IMG/VR virus record: IMGVR_UViG_2713896902_000003
Span: 1 to 31,452 of that record
Direction: 5' to 3' (one strand)
Source: a virus
Taxonomy: Duplodnaviria; Heunggongvirae; Uroviricota; Caudoviricetes
DNA length: 31,452 nt
The position numbers and the translations under genes were made by a program. The notes below the pieces were generated by a model. The model saw nothing but the letters and a program-made list of their open reading frames with translations, was not told the DNA's origin and did no database searches. Shown piece by piece: positions 1,422 through 14,942 of the stretch (position 1 is its first letter; each line of letters begins with the position of its first letter).

Positions 1422-3755
1422 TTAAAAATCAGCCGGATTCGGGATCAGTTTTTGCCAGATTGCTGAAACTTGTTTTGCTTGGTGACGGGCGTCATCCAGT
1501 GCATTGTGGGGCACACCTTCGAATGGAATAGCCATTCTGACATCAAAGCCAATGGAATTTCCCAGTTCAACAATTGTGCGTACATCGCGATCGTTGCAGT
1601 AACGCCACGGGCAGGGGAGTCCCTGTCGTTCATATGAACGGCGTAAAATCACGTTGTCGAAATTGGCTCCATTTCCCCAGACCTGAACAAAAAATTCGCA
1701 GGAGTTTTCCGCAATAAATTCCCGCAATTGCAGCAGAGCATCATCTAACGGGATTTCATCGGTCAGAATGGCAGATTGCGCTTCGCGTGATTGTTTCAGC
1801 CACCACTTTATTGTTTGTCTGTCGATGATTCCGCCAGCAGTTTCCAGATCGATAGCTTTACTGAATTCAGGCCCCATATCTCCGGTCTGCGGATCGAAAA
1901 ATATTGCGCCTATTGAGATAATCGTGGCGTCGGGATTTTTTCCCATTGTTTCCAGGTCGATCATCAGGTGGCGCTGCATTTTGCTGGTGGATGTATTAAT
2001 TTGATGGTCGTTCACCTTAATTATGGAATTTGCCGTTTCGCCAGTTTTATGAGCGCTATCGTGGTGCTGAGCGCTGCCAGCGTTCTCCTTGTGCAGATGT
2101 TCAGCGCCTTCCATTTCCTCCGGATCTTTTTCCTGAGATTCATCCAGATTTTCTTCATCGAATGTTTCCTGGTATGTTGCGTTGCCCATCACTGGGCCAC
2201 AATCAGGGCAGTTGCCGCCGCCAGTCTGACCGCAGGCGGTGCAGGTTTTTTCTGATTCCTGTCGTGTCTCTGACTCGTTTTGTCGCGCATTTTGACTGTT
2301 TTGTTCAGCTTTTTGCTGGCTCTGGTAAACTGAATCGCAAGTCTGGATCCCATCAACCCATTTCGGATCATTCGGGTCGCTAATCCCTTCAACAAATTCT
2401 CCGCGACAGGCAGCCAGCACTTTGTCTGCATCGACAGAATTTTTGGGCGGAATGTTTTTCCGTGCTTCATGGAGTTCTGCCCGTAGTTCCTGATATTTCG
2501 CATCAACAGAATTTACCTGTGGCTGAGCATCCATCGACTGCGTGTCCTGATGATGTTCAGTTGTATCCGGTTCCGCTGTTTCAGGCGTTGCCTGTTTATC
2601 TTCCAGGATATCTTTTTCCGGTGTATGTCGTGCAGCAGCAAGAGTTTCCTTGCTGGGGTTCTCGTGATCAGTCTCCGTTAAGTGGGCGTTGATATACTCC
2701 TGAAGGCGTCCCGGGTAGAGATAAAGTTCAGGGTGAGCACTTCGGATAAGTGCAAAATTCGCGGCGCGGGAATAATCCAGAATACCCGGGGTTGCGCGAA
2801 GTGCTGCGGACCATTCTTTGAACGGACTTTCTTTCTTCCGGACGACTTCTTTTGCGCGACGATAAACGCTGCCCGGGATTTCATAAATATTAAAATCAAT
2901 CGGAAGTGTGGCCGCTGCAATCTCCACATCCAGTGTATCGAGGGTGTGTACTAAATTCGGATTGCGATCGGTTTTGTTCCCACCGCCAGCATTAGCACCG
3001 GAAGCCGTGCGGGTGATGCGTGAAACACGATTTCCTTTCATCCACTCTTTTGTCAGCAGACCACGATCGGTGTAGTCGGCGCCCAGGTATGCTTCGAAAA
3101 AAGCAGTTATCAGTCCCAGATCTGAATTACCAGGATTAGGGAAAACTTTGTCAGTGTCACGAACCAGTTTGTGGAGATCGCGAATCTCCAGCGGTTTGAG
3201 TTGCGCTGCTTTATTTGAGATGGCCAGCGCTGTAACTGCGGGGAGTTTTTCATCCTGTGTGTTATGTAATGCGCGCAGTTCTTCCCGTGAAACGTGCGTT
3301 ATCGGTTTTTCGCTGCTGTGCTGTGCCAGCCAGCGAACAGGCAGAATCTGACCTGAAATCGGGAGTAGCATATTCTCCTCAATCTCAGTCATATCTTCGC
3401 CGTTGACGTTGGTATTGTCAGTGCTGGCTGGTTTATCCTGAACAGAGGGGGAAGGGGCGATAAATACCATTGTGATGCCATCTTCCCCGCCTTTTTCATA
3501 GCGGTTGCAGAATTCAGTATCAAACACGCCTTCTGGCGGAAGGTCGTCAACAACGGGCAAATTGACGCGGACGGGTTTTTTAAAGTCGTCCTCATCATAA
3601 TTGTTATCATCCATTGCGGTAATACAGCGGGAGACAGCAACAGATAATTTTTTTGCTGTAGTCCAGAAAAAACCGCCTTTGATGCCGAGACGTTTTCTGA
3701 CTTTGTCATTTTTTGCTTCGCAATATAGTGCAAATTCTTCTTTATCAGTGCTCAT
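1422..3755 (-). CDS. Putative exonuclease, 777 aa; C-terminal DnaQ-like (DEDD) 3'-5' exonuclease domain, N-terminal two-thirds uncharacterized
   Basis: Long ORF; C-terminal ~190 aa carry exonuclease motifs (MIDLETMG Exo I-like D-x-E, later HNALDDA with His/Asp); a four-Cys cluster [16 protein letters not shown] lies upstream of the nuclease domain. Sits where lambda exo or Rac recE lies; related prophage proteins are often annotated exodeoxyribonuclease VIII. Confidence 0.6.
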
Positions 3756-8241: not shown

Positions 8242-8736
8242 ATGAGCGCTTTTACCAAAGAGCAACTAATCGAGTACGCAAGGGCTTACATTGAGCATGA
8301 TACATTGTTGAAAACGAGGTTTGGTAAAAGTTACAAGACGTCTGCATATATAGAATTGGTTCGTATTGCGTTGATTTCGCTTGAAACAGGGACGCCTTAT
8401 ATGAATCAATTTACCAGAAAAACATTTACGCTGGATGCGCAACCAGATGCTGATAGAGAGTCTGATGCACATGAACCTTCTTATGCATTTCAATTGCCAT
8501 CAGTAGCTCCGGAGATGGCTGAAGATGCTATTAAATGTATTCGCAGCATCGCTCCCCACCTTAATGAAGGTACTCCCTCTTCGACATCTGACAGGCAGGT
8601 CCACGAGCTAGCTATATGGGTTAAGCGTCTAGCCTATTCCTTAAAAGGTGTCAATAAATCAAGCAAGTTACCAGATAAGGCGATGGACTATCTGGAGGTT
8701 AACGGGATGATAAATAAGGAGAATATCTTGCGGTGA
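8242..8736 (+). CDS. Hypothetical protein, 164 aa (moron cargo, function unknown)
   Basis: Clean ORF in a visibly AT-rich segment between the replication and DUF968 genes; own promoter-like -10; no recognizable motif. Confidence 0.6.
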   Translation: MSAFTKEQLIEYARAYIEHDTLLKTRFGKSYKTSAYIELVRIALISLETGTPYMNQFTRKTFTLDAQPDADRESDAHEPSYAFQLPSVAPEMAEDAIKCIRSIAPHLNEGTPSSTSDRQVHELAIWVKRLAYSLKGVNKSSKLPDKAMDYLEVNGMINKENILR

Positions 8737-9315
8737 GTAAAATTTATGCAATTGAGTAATCGTGTTTTTCTGAGTACTCATGTCGGGGTTTACTGTCAAG
8801 AATAAAAACAATTTGCAGGCAAAAGAAACTTGAGTAAAATTGATACAGGATGCCTGAGGTTGTCAGCCCGGGCATAAACGTCAAGAGGCAGACAGAGAAA
8901 AACTTCGTTGTATTTGCGACCAGTCAATCGAAGTTTGCTCATGCCAGACATATTTACTCTGAGCTCCTTCCATACTGAACGGCAGGGAAAGTGCAGATTA
9001 TGAAGTGTAAACAGTGTTAATACTCTGAGTGTCATTTGTATCGCGGTCACTGTGACAGAATCAGGGAAATCTCTGTCAAGCACGAACCAGAATCGGTCCG
9101 TCGGGAATTGCTTCATGGTTTGCGAATCTGAGTGAGGAGTAAGAAAAGTCGGTGGGGGTATGCTTCTCCACCTCTTTTTTTCTGGTGCATCTGGCATCCT
9201 CTGGGCATCCACACTTAATTTTCTTAAGTAGATTTTGTATTTTCTACGCATTTTGGTTTACAATTTGCGCGCCAACCTGAACAATTGGTACCTGCTGCGT
9301 CAATAGAGAAAATAA

Positions 9316-9594
9316 ATGACGCACAATACTAAACCTCGCAATTCTGATAATATCGCCGTCTTTGCCAACAGGCACGGGCGGCATTCACATGCATTCAAAT
9401 CTGACTGGTTCCAGCATGACCCATGCACTGAGGAACAGGCCGAATGGCTGATTCAGAATTACCGCAGACGTGGGTACGAGTTTCAGAAAGACCTCAGTCT
9501 TGATTTCCGACACTGGATAATTTCCGTCAGGCTTCCTTATTCCGAACGCCCACCGCGTCCGTCCCGCACATTCCAGCAACGGATCTGGAGGTAA
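9316..9594 (+). CDS. Hypothetical protein, 92 aa
   Basis: ORF from track; stop TAA is 1 nt before the GTG start of the downstream DUF968-like gene, which has its RBS GGAGG inside this ORF (translational coupling). Confidence 0.5.
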   Translation: MTHNTKPRNSDNIAVFANRHGRHSHAFKSDWFQHDPCTEEQAEWLIQNYRRRGYEFQKDLSLDFRHWIISVRLPYSERPPRPSRTFQQRIWR

Positions 9595-9595
9595 C

Positions 9596-10654
9596 GTGCG
9601 GGTATTACTTAGACCTGTTCTGGTACCGGAACTTGGGCTGGTGGTCCTTAAGCCAGGCCGTGAATCCATGCAGGTATTTCATAATGCCCGGGTGCTGGTG
9701 GAGCCGGAACCGAAAAGCATGCGCGGCCTGCCGTCCGGAGTCGTCCCCGCTGTTCGTCAGCCGCTGGTGGAAGATAAATCATTATTGCCATTTTTCAGCG
9801 ATGAGCGGGTTATTCGTGCTGCTGGTGGCGCTGGCGCATTGTCTGACTGGCTCCTGCGTCATGTTAAATCCTGCCAGTGGCCTCATGGTGATTACCATCA
9901 CAGCGAAACCGTCATACATCGTTATGGTACCGGCGCCATGGTGTTGTGCTGGCACTGCGACAACCAGCTGCGTGACCAGACCTCCGAATCACTTGAGCAA
10001 CTTGCTCGTCAAAATCTGGCAGCCTGGATGATTGACGTCATCCGCCACGCAATAAGCGGTACACAGGAACGGGAATTATCGCTGGCTGAATTATCCTGGT
10101 GGGCAGTCCGCAATCAGGTGGCGGACGCACTACCTGAGGCGGTATCGCGTCGTTCGCTGGGATTACCGGTGGAAAAAATCCGTTCAGTATACCGCGAAAG
10201 CGACATCATACCGGGAGAGCAGACAGCCACCAGCATACTGAAGCTGCGCACAAAAAATCTTGCGCGGTTGCCTCACGCCCACCAGCAACAAAAACCACCA
10301 CAGGAAAAGACGGTAGTAAGCATCGCCGTTGATCCGGAGTCTCCGGCTCAGTATCTCCAGCGCCAGAAACCACAACGGGAAGAGATGCCCGTATACACGC
10401 GCTGGGTAAAAACACAGAAATGCATGACGTGTGGCAATCAGGCAGATGATCCGCATCACATCATTGGTCATGGACTGGGAGGGATGGGAACAAAGGCTGA
10501 CGATTTGTTTGTTATTCCGCTGTGCCGTAGATGCCATAACGAACTGCACGCCGGGGTAAAAGATTTTGAAGAAAAACACGGCAGCCAGCTGTTGTTGCTG
10601 ATTCGTTTTTTAATGCACGCGAGAAATTCGGGTGTTCTGAAGTGGAAAGCATGA
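9596..10654 (+). CDS. DUF968-like prophage protein with C-terminal HNH-like zinc-binding nuclease motif, 352 aa
   Basis: Size and position (between replication and rusA/Q) match the DUF968/YdfU-type proteins of lambdoid prophages; C-terminus has CMTCGNQADDPHHIIGHGLGG...CRRCHNELH, i.e. paired Cys motifs with conserved His typical of the HNH fold. Confidence 0.65.
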   Translation: MRVLLRPVLVPELGLVVLKPGRESMQVFHNARVLVEPEPKSMRGLPSGVVPAVRQPLVEDKSLLPFFSDERVIRAAGGAGALSDWLLRHVKSCQWPHGDYHHSETVIHRYGTGAMVLCWHCDNQLRDQTSESLEQLARQNLAAWMIDVIRHAISGTQERELSLAELSWWAVRNQVADALPEAVSRRSLGLPVEKIRSVYRESDIIPGEQTATSILKLRTKNLARLPHAHQQQKPPQEKTVVSIAVDPESPAQYLQRQKPQREEMPVYTRWVKTQKCMTCGNQADDPHHIIGHGLGGMGTKADDLFVIPLCRRCHNELHAGVKDFEEKHGSQLLLLIRFLMHARNSGVLKWKA

Positions 10655-11032
10655 ATGACTGAACGCATAGAATTTGTTTTGCCTTATCCGCCTACGGTGA
10701 ACACCTACTGGCGCCGCCGTGGTGGCACATATTTTGTATCAAAATCCGGAGAACGTTATCGCCGTGATGTGGCGCTGATTGTTCGTCAGCAACGGCTGAA
10801 ATTAAACCTGTCCGGAAGGCTGGCAATCAGGATTATTGCAGAGCCACCGGATAAGCGCCGCCGCGACCTGGACAATATCCTGAAGGCACCACTGGATGCA
10901 CTGACACATGCAGGACTGCTTATCGACGATGAGCAGTTTGACGAAATCAATATAGTGCGCGGTCAGCTCGTTCCTGGTGGTCGGCTGGGTGTGAAGATTT
11001 ACGAAATTACAGGTGATAACGATGGCGCGTGA
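10655..11032 (+). CDS. rusA: Crossover junction endodeoxyribonuclease RusA (Holliday junction resolvase), 125 aa
   Basis: Matches RusA by recall: N-terminal [16 protein letters not shown] and the catalytic-region motif [27 protein letters not shown]; usual position just upstream of Q. Confidence 0.9.
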
Positions 11033-11408
11033 TATTCAGCAGGTTATGGAGCGGTGGGGGGCATGGGCTGCAAACAATCATGAAGATGTGTCCTGGGCAT
11101 CAATCGCTGCTGGTTTTAAAGGATTAATTCCGTCGAAAGTGAAATCACGCCCTCAGTGTTCTGATGATGATGCAATGATAATTTGTGGCTGTATGGCCCG
11201 GTTGAACAAGAAAAATCAGGATTTGCACGATTTGTTGGTGGATTATTACATAGGTGGAATGACTTTTATGGGGCTGGCACGAAAGCATGGGTGTTCGGAT
11301 ACCTGTATTGGCAAGCGCCTGCAGAAAGCTGAAGGGGTTATTGATGGCATGTTGATGATGCTTGATATCCGACTGGAGATGGACAGATACGTAGAACGAA
11401 TCATGTAG
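11022..11408 (+). CDS. Late-gene antitermination protein Q-like, about 128 aa
   Basis: Track ORF 11013..11408; ATG at 11022 preferred. Located immediately upstream of a promoter plus intrinsic terminator (PR'/tR' arrangement) and downstream of rusA; Cys/His-containing middle region ([12 protein letters not shown]...HGCSDTC). Confidence 0.7.
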
Positions 11409-11412
11409 GAGC

Positions 11413-11442
11413 TTGACCAGACACATTGTCCGGGGCTATATT
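11413..11442 (+). promoter_or_regulatory. Candidate late promoter PR' (TTGACC 11413-11418; TATATT 11437-11442)
   Basis: Near-consensus -35 and -10 hexamers with an 18-nt spacer, 5 nt after the Q stop codon and about 60 nt upstream of an intrinsic terminator. Confidence 0.5.
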
Positions 11443-11504
11443 CCTCACGCGCCAGCAAAATCTGGCGTCGGGATTAGGAACCCCGGATAGAGACCGCGAC
11501 AGAC

Positions 11505-11526
11505 ACACGCCGCGAGCGTGTTTTTT
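11505..11526 (+). terminator. Intrinsic terminator tR' candidate (ACACGC-CGCGA-GCGTGT plus T6)
   Basis: 6-bp GC-rich stem, 5-nt loop, followed by TTTTTTATT; read directly. Confidence 0.6.
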
Positions 11527-11689
11527 ATTGTCGTATGCACGCGCACATCTGAATTATGGTGGGGCGTATGGGGGAGCTGAAAAGCTCGCCGGTTGGTTTC
11601 CCGGTAGTTCCTAACCCTGTACGTCTCACCACCCGATGATTAGGAACCTGACGGTGGTGATGGTTTAGAAACCACCAGAGGGCGTCATT

Positions 11690-12277
11690 ATGACAACTCA
11701 AATTTCTGTTGAAACTCTCTCCCCGATCACCCATAACCAGATTCCTGTTATTACCACCGAACTTTTGGCGCAGTTGTACGGTGCTGAAGTTAAGAACATT
11801 CAAAATAACTACGCCAGAAATGCTGAGCGCTTTATTGAAGGAAAGCATTTTTTCAAAGTGGCTGGCGATGCCCTGAAAAATTTGCGGGTAGCTTTAAACT
11901 ACTCACAAAATTTGCAACCATCTTTAAGAGGGTTACAAATTTCCCCGAAAGCCCGCTCGCTCATACTCTGGACAGAACGCGGCGCAGCCCGCCACGCAAA
12001 AATGCTCGAAACCGATCAGGCGTGGGAAGTATTCGAAAAACTGGAAGACTGTTATTTCAGCCAGAAACAGCCACTAGCAACACAAAACTCACCCACCGAA
12101 AATGATGGATGCGCATTACTGATCCACTTCGATAAACACGGTCAGGTCGACTTTACGGAAAAAGTACCCGCCGATGCGATGGTATGCACTCTGGAACGGT
12201 TCAAATTTTATCTGGAACAACGCGGCTGGATCGTTGCCCGTAAAGAGCAACTGGTGGAACGATTGATGAGGCTTTAA
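11690..12277 (+). CDS. ORF6N-like (phage antirepressor N-terminal DNA-binding domain) protein, 195 aa
   Basis: First ORF downstream of PR'/tR'; RBS AGAGGG; N-terminal region (IPVITTELLAQLYGAEVKNIQNNYARNAERFIEGKHFF...ILWTERGAARHAKML) resembles ORF6N/Bro-N type domains as recalled. Confidence 0.5.
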   Translation: MTTQISVETLSPITHNQIPVITTELLAQLYGAEVKNIQNNYARNAERFIEGKHFFKVAGDALKNLRVALNYSQNLQPSLRGLQISPKARSLILWTERGAARHAKMLETDQAWEVFEKLEDCYFSQKQPLATQNSPTENDGCALLIHFDKHGQVDFTEKVPADAMVCTLERFKFYLEQRGWIVARKEQLVERLMRL

Positions 12278-12355
12278 AAATTTTCCCCGAACGCTTTACG
12301 ATCGTAAAAAGTTGAATATCCTGTTAAGAGTGGTTACTACGCCACACAGCTTAAA

Positions 12356-12377
12356 CCCGCCGATGAGCGGGTTTTTT
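12356..12377 (+). terminator. Intrinsic terminator after the ORF6N-like gene (CCCGC-CGATGA-GCGGG plus T6)
   Basis: Read directly, about 80 nt after the stop codon. Confidence 0.6.
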
Positions 12378-12683
12378 ATGCCCGAAAAGTGGCACAGGAC
12401 GTTAAACGCGCTGGTGGTTGCGAATACTGGTCTTCAGCTTGCTGGCTTTTTTGGCCAGGAGTTATTGGTGTTACATGTCTGACAGTTGTCTGTAACTGGT
12501 TCCGGGATTTTTACACCTGTACAGCGGAAGGGACATGAACCTTTGTTGCTGGCAGGGTTAAGCTAACCAAATCTGAAAGTGGTGTGACTGTCATTGCCGG
12601 AGAGAGATTCATGAGTCTACGCTAATCAATGCGGAGTAATTTTTCTTCGTAACGAGTATCCGACTGTTGTTTTGTCTTTATTG

Positions 12684-12708
12684 CCAGCCCATAAGGGTTG
12701 GTTTTTTT
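12684..12708 (+). terminator. Intrinsic terminator candidate (CCAGCCC-ATAA-GGGTTGG plus T7)
   Basis: 7-bp stem with one G-U pair, then TTTTTTT; read directly. Confidence 0.45.
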
Positions 12709-13084
12709 ACAGAAAATTGCCTGTAAGACAGGTGGTTCAGTAATAGCTTGGATATTGGGATATATAAAAATTGTTATATGTATCCGGGATGTTGTGCGTG
12801 CATGTGGAATACAACCGTTACTGCCTTGTTATTATTTTGAAAACTGGTCGCTGTGTATTCTTGTTCTTTCCGGATAATGTGATGTAGATCTATTACATTA
12901 CCAGGCAGCGTATTTTAACCTTTCAGAGATTCTGAGGTGTTCCCCAGTGCGGGGGTGACGGATGTGGTTGTTTAGCGGGAAGTCACAGTATGCTGTTTTG
13001 GGACTGACAGCAATATACTTCGGGAGGCACCCGACGCTTCGGATCATATCAATAATAATTATATCTTCTTTTGACCATCCTTTT

Positions 13085-13108
13085 ACCGCCTGACAAGGCG
13101 GTTTTTTG
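13085..13108 (+). terminator. Intrinsic terminator candidate (ACCGCC-TGACAA-GGCGGT plus T6), nested in a longer inverted repeat CGCCTGACAA/TTGTCAGGCG (13087-13134)
   Basis: Read directly; the outer 10-bp repeat is also followed by TTTTT (13135-13139). Confidence 0.5.
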
Positions 13109-13226
13109 TTTCTGTAAACAGCATTTGTCAGGCGTTTTTCGATATATCAAAGTATCGCTATGTAGTTTAAATGCAGAGCTGAAGAGTATTGCTGGTGCTG
13201 GCATCAAGATGAGGAAAGTTTTAGTG

Positions 13227-13253
13227 AAAAAAAACGGCTCATAAAGAGCCGTT
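13227..13253 (-). terminator. Reverse-strand intrinsic terminator module 1a (stem AACGGCTC/GAGCCGTT, U-tract from plus-strand A8)
   Basis: Plus strand reads A8-hairpin-TTAAAAA; on the minus strand the hairpin is followed by T8. Confidence 0.5.
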
Positions 13254-13377
13254 AAAAATGTGATAGTTATGCATCTATAGAGTAATTCAGTATTTTCCTG
13301 TTTTTATTGTGCAATTCCTTGATGTGGATCATGTTTGTTGTAATGACCTCAAGAGTTGAACAAACTTTATTTAGTCT

Positions 13378-13404
13378 AAAAAAAATACCCTCCAGCGGAG
13401 GGTA
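13378..13404 (-). terminator. Reverse-strand intrinsic terminator module 2a (stem TACCCTCC/GGAGGGTA, loop AGC)
   Basis: 8-bp GC-rich stem with A8 immediately 5' on the plus strand, i.e. T8 3' of the hairpin on the minus strand. Confidence 0.55.
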
Positions 13405-13526
13405 TAAAATGTGTTAACTAAGCATTCATTATGTTGTAAGTGTCATATGTGATTTTCATTTTATGAGTTTTGACGTGACTTTTTGTGATGTGATTCTTAT
13501 TTTTGAATAATAAAGTTACGTAAAGA

Positions 13527-13557
13527 AATAAAAAAGCGACCCATTTGAAGAGTCGCT
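13527..13557 (-). terminator. Reverse-strand intrinsic terminator module 3a (stem AGCGAC/GTCGCT)
   Basis: Hairpin preceded on the plus strand by AATAAAAAA (U-tract on minus strand). Confidence 0.45.
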
Positions 13558-13671
13558 TGTGAATAAAGGCGGTATGTGAGTAGTAACGTACGGAGTGAAT
13601 TTTACTGCACCAGATGTGTGGTAGATATTGATTCTGGTCAATTCATCTGTAATGAGTGGTTGTTTAACGGC

Positions 13672-13698
13672 AAAAAAATAGCTCCCCGGAAGAGGAGC
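13672..13698 (-). terminator. Reverse-strand intrinsic terminator module 4a (stem GCTCC/GGAGC)
   Basis: Hairpin preceded on the plus strand by AAAAAAATA. Confidence 0.4.
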
Positions 13699-14189
13699 CC
13701 GTGAAAATTCATGGTGAGAAGAACAAGTCTTTACAAAAGACTCCGACAGACAAAGAACCATAAATATGATATGGGGGGGATAGTGGTTCTGTGGTGATTT
13801 ATATCAAAATTTTGATGTTTTCTTGAATGCTTGATGGCTAATTATAATAGTACATATTAAATGTTTATTATTATTTTCATATTGGAATAAGTAGCATCCT
13901 TGATATATCGCCCTGTAACTAGGCGAATGCCGGAAGCAGAACCGGCTCACCAAATACATACGGGCGTCATCACCACCAGCTAACAGCACAACCATAAATG
14001 AAAGTCATAGTTATTGGGGGATCCAGACCTTTCGGTTAACTGGTTTTTCTACAGAAAATTACCAGTCTGGCTGGTGGTTCCGGGAACCGCATCAATTATG
14101 GGGTTTGAATGTAGCGGAAAGTATATTATTGATGTTGCCGGGACTGACAGCAAGGTGAATGAAAAATGGACGTTGGAAAGCTTCTGTGC

Positions 14190-14217
14190 AAAAAAACGGC
14201 ACTGAGAAAGTGCCGTT
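14190..14217 (-). terminator. Reverse-strand intrinsic terminator module 1b (stem AACGGCACT/AGTGCCGTT)
   Basis: Counterpart of 1a with compensatory stem changes; A7 on the plus-strand 5' side. Confidence 0.5.
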
Positions 14218-14338
14218 AAAAAGTAACATGTATGATATATAAGGTCTTGTTAGTATTTTCTGTATTGCGATTCGTTTTCTTTGATTTCAGTCAACATTGA
14301 TGCGCAGTAATTAGTAATGGATTGAAATTTATGCAGAC

Positions 14339-14365
14339 AAAAAAAGTACCCTCCTGACGAGGGTA
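14339..14365 (-). terminator. Reverse-strand intrinsic terminator module 2b (stem GTACCCTC/GAGGGTAC, loop CTGAC)
   Basis: Counterpart of 2a; stem register shifted and loop changed but pairing kept. Confidence 0.55.
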
Positions 14366-14507
14366 CAGGTACGAAAACATGTGAAGAAGTATTTATTGCT
14401 AGTGTTATGTAGAGCTCTGAATCCTACGCGTTCTGATCTTACAAATTTCATATTTTTTTTATGTGATGCAGTTCCTGTTTTTATTTTTTTGTCGGTGATG
14501 GTCTGAT

Positions 14508-14534
14508 AAAAAGCGACCTTTTTACAGGTCGCTT
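14508..14534 (-). terminator. Reverse-strand intrinsic terminator module 3b (stem AAGCGACC/GGTCGCTT)
   Basis: Counterpart of 3a with compensatory change (gaccc...gagtc versus gacct...aggtc). Confidence 0.45.
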
Positions 14535-14647
14535 GTGAACGAAGGAAGTATATGAGTAGTAGTGTACGTACTCTATTTTACTGCTCCAGATGTGTGATGG
14601 ATGTTGATGCAGGTCAACTTTCTGTAATAAATAGTTTTTTAACAAAT

Positions 14648-14673
14648 AAAAAATGGCTCCCGAAAGAGGAGCC
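14648..14673 (-). terminator. Reverse-strand intrinsic terminator module 4b (stem GGCTCC/GGAGCC)
   Basis: Counterpart of 4a; A-rich tract on the plus-strand 5' side. Confidence 0.4.
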
Positions 14674-14942
14674 AATAATGGAAAAGCCTGGAATCTCATA
14701 TATGTAATTGTATACATCTGTATTTTATTTATCGTGTAATAGTTTGTAGTGATTTATATCAATGTTTTGATAGTATTTCTGAATGTCTGGATGCTAATTA
14801 TAATAATGCATATCGCAGGCTTATTATTATTTACGCATTAAAATAAATAGCATCCTTGATATATCATTCTGACTCTGTTGTCTGGTAGTGAGGAATTAAA
14901 ACGGGGAGGAATATACAGATATTCCTGCCTGATATTGTCAAT

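Follow-up and report, generated by a model that had tools for sequence, protein, structure and literature searches.

The DNA considered here is a stretch of 31,452 nucleotides (nt) from a virus of the Caudoviricetes (IMG/VR record IMGVR_UViG_2713896902_000003, positions 1 to 31,452), referred to below as the window. Our subject is a pair of adjoining genes within it: a 92-codon open reading frame (ORF), here called orf92, and ydfU, which encodes a 352-residue protein of the DUF968 family. Immediately downstream lie genes for a RusA Holliday-junction resolvase and a Q-type antiterminator (Table 1). The wider window is that of a lambdoid prophage, with an integrase, a RecE-like exonuclease, a repressor, Cro- and CII-like regulators and a replication protein, and we think it rather probable that orf92, ydfU, rusA and Q together make up a recombination and junction-processing cassette in the nin region of a lambdoid (Qin/Rac-like) Escherichia prophage.

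The most exact observation at this locus concerns the junction between the two genes. As the original prediction from the bare sequence had it, the small ORF stops one nucleotide before the GTG of its larger neighbor, whose ribosome-binding site lies inside the upstream ORF; in the raw sequence the TAA of orf92 and the GTG of ydfU are separated by the single base C 9595. We regard the GTG at 9596 as the real start of ydfU because there is no other in-frame ATG, GTG or TTG between the previous stop and this position, and because the conservation that the ydfU product shares with its distant homologues, P1 PdcB and gp48 of Vibrio phage H20, sets in precisely here. Two database entries for YdfU (P0132 and P0150, 375-376 residues) carry a false N-terminal extension of 23 residues that stems from a +1-frame ATG inside orf92. 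Two still longer entries, P0121 (411 residues) and P0122 (449 residues), were considered as natural orf92-YdfU fusions and rejected as such: they contain internal duplications of YdfU segments instead, and these tandem duplications are probably artefacts of assembly or annotation.

In a survey of 80 related viral contigs carrying an orf92 relative, the orf92-ydfU pair is present in 76, and every one of these 76 pairs shows the same arrangement of TAA, 1-nt spacer and GTG. Three of the four contigs without the pair end less than 300 nt past the orf92 stop; the fourth has room for ydfU and gives no YdfU match, so that pairing in this Qin-type set stands at 76 of 77 informative loci. The GGAGG motif is likewise invariant, in all 26 distinct junction sequences. 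The coupling geometry is thus exact, and it is invariant across related loci. It is also common: at least 80% of the segment 9316-9640 is held by 4375 of 5426 complete E. coli genomes, at up to 8 places per genome.

Table 1. Features of the orf92-ydfU locus, followed by the genes downstream and the candidate signals upstream (positions in the window)
Feature	Coordinates	Strand	Description
orf92	9316..9594	+	ATG 9316 to TAA 9592-9594, 92 codons; small protein of PHROG 1212
ydfU	9596..10654	+	GTG start, 352 residues, TGA 10652-10654; Pfam DUF968, PHROG 96
Shine-Dalgarno sequence for ydfU	9587..9591	+	GGAGG, within the final codons of orf92 and 4 nt ahead of the GTG
Predicted RNA hairpin	9563..9602	+	would pair the ydfU ribosome-binding site and GTG with orf92 codons 83-87
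Cys/His motif of the YdfU N-domain	9872..9964	+	C93, Q94 ... C118, W119, H120, C121, D122, N123; predicted ββα element
Predicted C-terminal His-Me finger (HNH) domain of YdfU	10388..10630	+	residues ~265-345
RusA Holliday-junction resolvase gene (rusA)	10655..11032	+	Pfam RusA, E 6.3e-16
Q-type antiterminator gene (Q)	11013..11408	+	Pfam Phage_antitermQ, E 2.3e-52; PHROG 79
Terminator-like hairpin and T-run	9151..9181	+	8-bp stem (5 GC pairs), then TCTTTTTTTC; consensus match only
Promoter-like site	9257..9285	+	TTTACA-17-AACAAT, 9/12 consensus matches

That orf92 is a genuine protein-coding gene, and a member of PHROG 1212, follows from several lines of evidence. Across 46 distinct alleles the ratio of nonsynonymous to synonymous change (dN/dS) is 0.19 in its own frame; the remaining two frames give 2.05 and 0.95. 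Residues 27-92 match PHROG 1212 (E 3.2e-37) over profile positions 1-66, which is the whole of the 66-position model, and this membership is backed by an alignment with 34 relatives. The protein accordingly divides into a core of residues 27-92, matching the family, and a weakly constrained N-terminal extension of 26 residues. An exhaustive profile search retrieves 73 clusters, mostly of ~66 residues, that cover residues 28-92. Close homologues are confined to Escherichia and Shigella, while tblastn picks up relatives, 30-47% identical, from phages of Salmonella, Klebsiella, Cronobacter, Citrobacter, Yersinia, Edwardsiella and Erwinia, and among such relatives is the gene known as 'orf QD1' in N15. 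PHROG 1212 itself is a family of 66-residue phage proteins whose function is unannotated and for which Pfam has no model; orf92 correspondingly has no match in Pfam (at E ≤ 0.1), NCBIfam or PADLOC. The AlphaFold2 model of orf92 is confident at residues 28-75, where the predicted local distance difference test score (pLDDT) exceeds 90 and the chain forms a strand-helix-strand-strand (β-α-β-β) core, past which a Pro/Arg-rich tail ends in a short helix. A fold search with this model returned no significant match, known immunity proteins included.

An alternative that these data speak to directly is that orf92 is not a functional protein at all, being either a leader ORF that regulates ydfU or an artefact of annotation. 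The homologue in the curated genome of K-12 MG1655 is indeed unannotated, and evolution of the first 26 codons is nearly neutral (dN/dS 0.69). The remainder of the gene behaves quite differently: dN/dS falls to 0.10 for the core and to 0.04 for the tail, the hydrophobic pattern is kept by relatives at 30-50% identity across many genera and in varied gene neighborhoods, and the predicted fold is a confident one. We consider a leader or artefact most improbable.

In K-12 MG1655 (NC_000913.3) the 346-nt gap between rem and ydfU (1644305-1644650, minus strand) holds an intact, unannotated 92-codon homologue of orf92. It has the same GGAGGTAACGTG junction to ydfU as the window, and in other E. coli genomes the homologue is annotated by PGAP. 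This position disposes of an identification with Rem (b1561), with which orf92 also gives no BLASTP alignment. Nor did the searched literature offer support for the label 'toxin to Rem' that RAST has attached to one homologue. In DLP12 and λ the small upstream genes are ninE and ninF, and by position orf92 might have been either; it matches no Pfam family, there being not one match at E ≤ 0.1, and the identification was dropped.

The larger protein had been called DUF968-like, with a Cys/His motif of HNH type near its C-terminus that suggested a nuclease, and as functionally uncharacterised. All of this has stood up, the nuclease domain at the level of profiles and models. A hidden Markov model (HMM) search places residues 160-344 of YdfU in DUF968 (PF06147) at 213.2 bits against a cutoff of 27.8 (E 3.4e-63), and the protein matches PHROG 96 from end to end (E 3.6e-164). 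A second Pfam family, HNHc_6, is matched at 32.3 bits against a cutoff of 26.6, with residues 267-328 falling on profile positions 119-184. Full-length relatives occur in 175 phage records when phage genomes are searched by tblastn, among them phages of Klebsiella, Yersinia and Vibrio, with gp48 of Vibrio H20 included; by the same method orf45 of SfV is ~48% identical to the window protein. A literature search found no functional paper on YdfU or DUF968.

The Cys/His motif at the C-terminus comprises C276, C279, H287, H288, C310, C313, H314 and H318. All four histidines are invariant in an alignment of 44 Escherichia, Yersinia and Vibrio sequences, which also served for the AlphaFold2 model. 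The cysteine pairs C276/C279 and C310/C313, a predicted structural zinc site, are present in the window protein and vary in PdcB and in the Vibrio homologues. The model has a mean pLDDT of 72 and is confident at residues 60-190 and 265-345; in the latter region it adopts the ββα-metal topology, and the solved structure closest to this predicted core is the catalytic core of Ref, the RecA-dependent nuclease of P1. Taken together, the profiles, the residues and the model indicate that the C-terminal ~85 residues of YdfU form a predicted zinc-stabilised ββα-metal (HNH) domain with its catalytic histidines intact. Searching the PDB with the single YdfU sequence gave marginal matches only, to YbcO and McrA, and a Klebsiella homologue of YdfU has a sub-threshold match to the Pfam family RecA_dep_nuc (17 bits against 26.9).

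The motif most strongly conserved in YdfU as a whole lies elsewhere, in the N-terminal domain. Across the same 44 sequences C93, Q94, C118, W119, H120 and D122 are invariant and N123 nearly so, and the motif recurs in PdcB. In the AlphaFold2 model it spans strands 105-110 and 113-118 and a helix at 119-125, with pLDDT values of 78-92. No PDB fold match could be attributed to the N-domain, and NinB was not among the matches. We examined whether this ββα element is a duplicate of the C-terminal HNH domain and rejected the idea, as the hhalign probability of 0.13% is not significant; the resemblance is at the level of the motif only.

Returning to the junction, the RNA spanning it is predicted to fold into a hairpin with two paired parts: CCCGCAC with GUGCGGG, the latter containing the start codon, and UUCCAG with CUGGAG, the latter overlapping the ribosome-binding site. 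The 44-nt segment 9561-9604 has a predicted stability of -17.8 kcal/mol (z = -3.0), and none of 200 shuffled sequences was as stable; the 111-nt context of the hairpin is of ordinary stability (z = -0.87). Among the 26 distinct sequences 97% of the cells are paired, there are two one-sided changes that preserve pairing, and the variable synonymous sites cluster in the loop. Synonymous diversity (pS) is lower in the tail of orf92 than in its core (0.16 against 0.39), which fits an extra constraint at the level of RNA. We regard this candidate hairpin as conserved and plausible, though unproven. If it forms, ydfU would owe most of its translation to ribosomes coming straight off orf92, whose passage would melt a structure that otherwise covers the ribosome-binding site and GUG, and we propose that both proteins would therefore be made together.

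What PHROG-1212 genes stand next to in other phages bears on whether the two products also work together. In mEp237-type loci, of which 80 were examined, the order is NinB, the small gene, and then either NinG (~57) or YbcO-RusA (~20), with starts that overlap or abut. In Cronobacter phage phiES15 the order is YbcN, PHROG-1212 gene, YbcO and RusA; in Klebsiella ST846phi9.1 the small gene is followed by a DUF968 gene with an ATGA overlap; in Citrobacter Chris1 it is followed by RusA and then YdfU; in Edwardsiella GF-2, by NinG; in Escherichia PHB10 it lies between NinB and RusA; and in contigs L170-174 it precedes a gene for a 151-residue NinG-like HNH protein. A junction nuclease, of differing family, is the next gene in 9 of the 12 lineages examined. 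Because the nucleases differ among these nine lineages, and because some YdfU lineages lack the small gene altogether (see below), we conclude that PHROG 1212 tracks the position of a junction nuclease and not YdfU specifically, and that YdfU can do without the small gene. The expectation that the two ORFs would be co-conserved holds, with a limit: co-conservation is strict within the Escherichia Qin-type clade (76/77), and only there, and does not extend across the YdfU family as a whole.

Comparison with better-known systems narrows what YdfU might do. The nearest of these is YdfU of the K-12 Qin prophage (b1560), which is 81% identical to the window protein over its full length, belongs to the same Pfam and PHROG families, likewise precedes the antiterminator Q, and likewise has the 92-codon ORF upstream with an identical junction; it differs in having no rusA between ydfU and Q and in carrying His at the position of C313. 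Jablonska et al. (2017) placed DUF968 and DUF1364 (YdfU and YbcO) in group 7 of the His-Me finger nucleases, noted their position next to RusA and Q, and proposed a role in recombination for the group (PMC5714182). An earlier paper had connected HNH domains of the DUF968 type with Orf/NinB domains in phages of Gram-positive bacteria (PMC4118853). DLP12 YbcO (PDB 3G27; DUF1364/YbcO) and λ NinG/Rap are, unlike YdfU, single-domain proteins, of 96 and ~205 residues.

Two characterised nucleases are of particular interest. P1 Ref is a RecA-dependent HNH nuclease (PMC4330346, PMC3973344, PMC4713147); it has 186 residues (PDB 3PLW; Pfam RecA_dep_nuc), with a disordered basic N-terminus where YdfU has an N-terminal part of 260 residues. 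Gp16 of the S. aureus phage ΦNM1, an HNH protein of 'subclass 6' in which a NinB-like domain is fused to the HNH domain, is an early phage RecA-dependent nickase (PMC12817073). It is the HNHc_6 profile, that of Gp16 and φETA Orf20, that the HNH region of YdfU matches above threshold. Gp16 thus joins in one chain a NinB-type recombination mediator and an HNH protein, which in mEp237-type cassettes are the products of neighboring genes. The likeness to YdfU extends only to positions 119-184 of the 204 in HNHc_6, and the YdfU N-domain is not NinB-like; a NinB gene was not detectable in the window.

A full-length homologue of YdfU is also found in P1, where PdcB (NC_005856.1, pdc locus 2177-3448) aligns at 25% identity over 90% coverage and falls in PHROG 96. 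Like ydfU, pdcB is preceded by a small ORF, pdcA, of 66 residues. The P1 pair differs in lying after phd-doc, with which pdcB is co-transcribed, and not in a nin region, and in that PdcA belongs to PHROG 3345; PdcA was tried as a divergent member of PHROG 1212 and shows no similarity to orf92 or to mEp237 gp51. In the literature searched, the name PdcB turned up only in unrelated senses.

On balance, then, we lean toward reading the locus as a nin-region cassette in which orf92 is coupled to YdfU, an HNH nickase that would act on recombination intermediates. In such a scheme YdfU would be a metal-dependent DNA nickase working on intermediates of recombination or replication, D-loops or branched DNA for example, perhaps in a RecA-dependent manner, as is the case for P1 Ref and ΦNM1 Gp16, the closest relatives that have been characterised, and it would operate alongside RusA during lytic growth of the phage. 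Least certain is the part assigned to orf92, that of an accessory factor of the adjacent junction nuclease; we put a functional partnership of orf92 with the nuclease at somewhat below an even chance. A stronger version, in which PHROG-1212 proteins are dedicated accessory subunits, co-translated with whichever of NinG/Rap, YbcO, YdfU or RusA follows, and in which orf92 and YdfU jointly constitute a Ref-like nuclease that requires RecA or D-loops, strikes us as unlikely.

A number of observations weigh against the coupled-nickase reading. With regard to the enzyme, the window YdfU has no match to the Ref family HMM (PF16786) at E ≤ 0.1, a YdfU profile run against PDB sequences returned zero matches, and PdcB has no residues that align to H314 and H318. 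Reported activity was found for none of YdfU, PdcB, YbcO or the PHROG-1212 proteins. With regard to coupling, the hairpin shows neither covariation nor any compensatory change among the 26 distinct sequences. In K-12, furthermore, the region upstream of ydfU, which contains the unannotated ORF, is reported to be among the strongest Rho-dependent terminators (PMC9160355), and Rho termination there suggests that the orf92 homologue is poorly translated in the silent, uninduced prophage.

Most of what counts against a partnership, however, comes from gene order, and it is here that one must consider whether orf92 and ydfU are simply independent neighbors, the function of orf92 being unrelated to YdfU (host takeover, for example, or another nin role) and the junction reflecting compact operon layout. 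Overlapping or abutting starts are general in this cassette: the ydfU-rusA boundary reads TGAATG, the rusA ATG directly abutting the ydfU TGA, and the 3' end of rusA overlaps Q, the last gene. Genes are packed tightly throughout nin regions, so that mere adjacency says little in favor of a partnership. In the five YdfU lineages alluded to above (SfV, P1, Vibrio H20, Yersinia and V. vulnificus), no PHROG-1212 gene lies closer than 2.5 kb to the YdfU homologue. Conversely, the gene after PHROG 1212 is not a junction nuclease in Erwinia 59, where it encodes a Dcm methylase (with NinG further downstream), or in PY54 and Enterobacter MII_001, where the following proteins are uncharacterised, and in N15 it encodes a DnaQ-like exonuclease with a Lar domain. 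Net charge, too, varies among PHROG-1212 members, and a shared DNA-binding role is not evident. What mere adjacency explains less readily is that a junction nuclease is nonetheless the next gene in three-quarters of the lineages (9/12), that pairing is so nearly universal among the Qin-type loci, and that Qin-type YdfU and orf92 are about equally numerous in the phage collection, at ~20 records each. We hold independence to be a possible, if not the favored, account.

The coupling of a small upstream gene to a nuclease gene also recalls colicin DNase-immunity pairs and type II toxin-antitoxin systems, and raises the question of whether orf92 is a co-translated inhibitor of a toxic HNH nuclease. 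Qin genes near ydfU have been described as toxic and as kept silent by Rho (PMC9160355), Gp16, a related HNH protein, inhibits growth of its host (PMC12817073), and there is the automated 'toxin to Rem' label on an orf92 homologue, for which no basis was found. An immunity protein would be expected to accompany its nuclease obligately, whereas YdfU-family genes are commonly found without the small gene, and PHROG 1212 also precedes unrelated nucleases, RusA and the DnaQ exonuclease among them. Nor does orf92 contain a DNA-binding antitoxin domain or have any PADLOC or Pfam match, and its fold, as noted, resembles no known immunity protein. We therefore judge such a pair very unlikely, and retain the coupled nin cassette with a putative YdfU nickase as our working interpretation.

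It should be stressed that parts of this picture are not novel. The HNH assignment of DUF968/YdfU has been published (PMC5714182), both genes are members of catalogued, uncharacterised families, and the basic picture is one of an ordinary lambdoid nin-region cassette with a nuclease role predicted from sequence. What is new here is the identity of the small ORF and its family context, the structural likeness of the HNH core to Ref, the homology to PdcB, the N-domain motif and the candidate hairpin. Few uncharacterised prophage proteins of E. coli are as common as YdfU (DUF968). Should it prove to be a nuclease of the Ref/Gp16 kind, acting on recombination intermediates, it would modify recombination and the DNA-damage response in lysogens on a wide scale; a Ref-like nuclease of orf92 and YdfU would be carried by ~80% of E. 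coli genomes, and might influence recombination or, in the manner of Ref, killing by antibiotics that damage DNA.

As for the surroundings of the cassette, its upstream edge is a terminator-like hairpin (stem part 9151-9172) ~140 nt before orf92; phage 689R5 has a different GC hairpin and T-run at the same position. Between this edge and orf92, a non-coding block of ~60 nt (9257-9315) is kept in K-12 Qin and in phage 689R5, and it includes the sequence TACAAT (9260-9265) that is common to all three. This may be a candidate -10 element, and the cassette may thus have its own promoter. Further upstream, a 164-residue ORF on the plus strand (8242-8736) belongs to no Pfam family, its matches to PHROGs 660 and 924 being limited to the final 50 residues, and a 151-residue ORF on the opposite strand (8796-9251, minus) has a marginal PHROG match only and is probably not a gene.

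Directly past Q, the plus-strand segment 11436-11636 matches the Rfam families isrK (69 bits), C4 antisense RNA (67 bits) and the a1/b1 target sites (48 bits), all above their gathering thresholds. These RNAs are followed by a gene for an ORF6N/Ant-type anti-repressor (11690-12277, plus strand), so that 11436-12277 reads as a predicted antisense-controlled anti-repressor module downstream of Q, like immI of P1/P7 and isrK of Gifsy-1. The anti-repressor gene is separated from the next clear genes by a 2.6-kb stretch (~12300-14880) with no ORF of at least 90 residues and no tRNA; it is AT-rich, at 35-42% GC as compared with 48-57% on its flanks.

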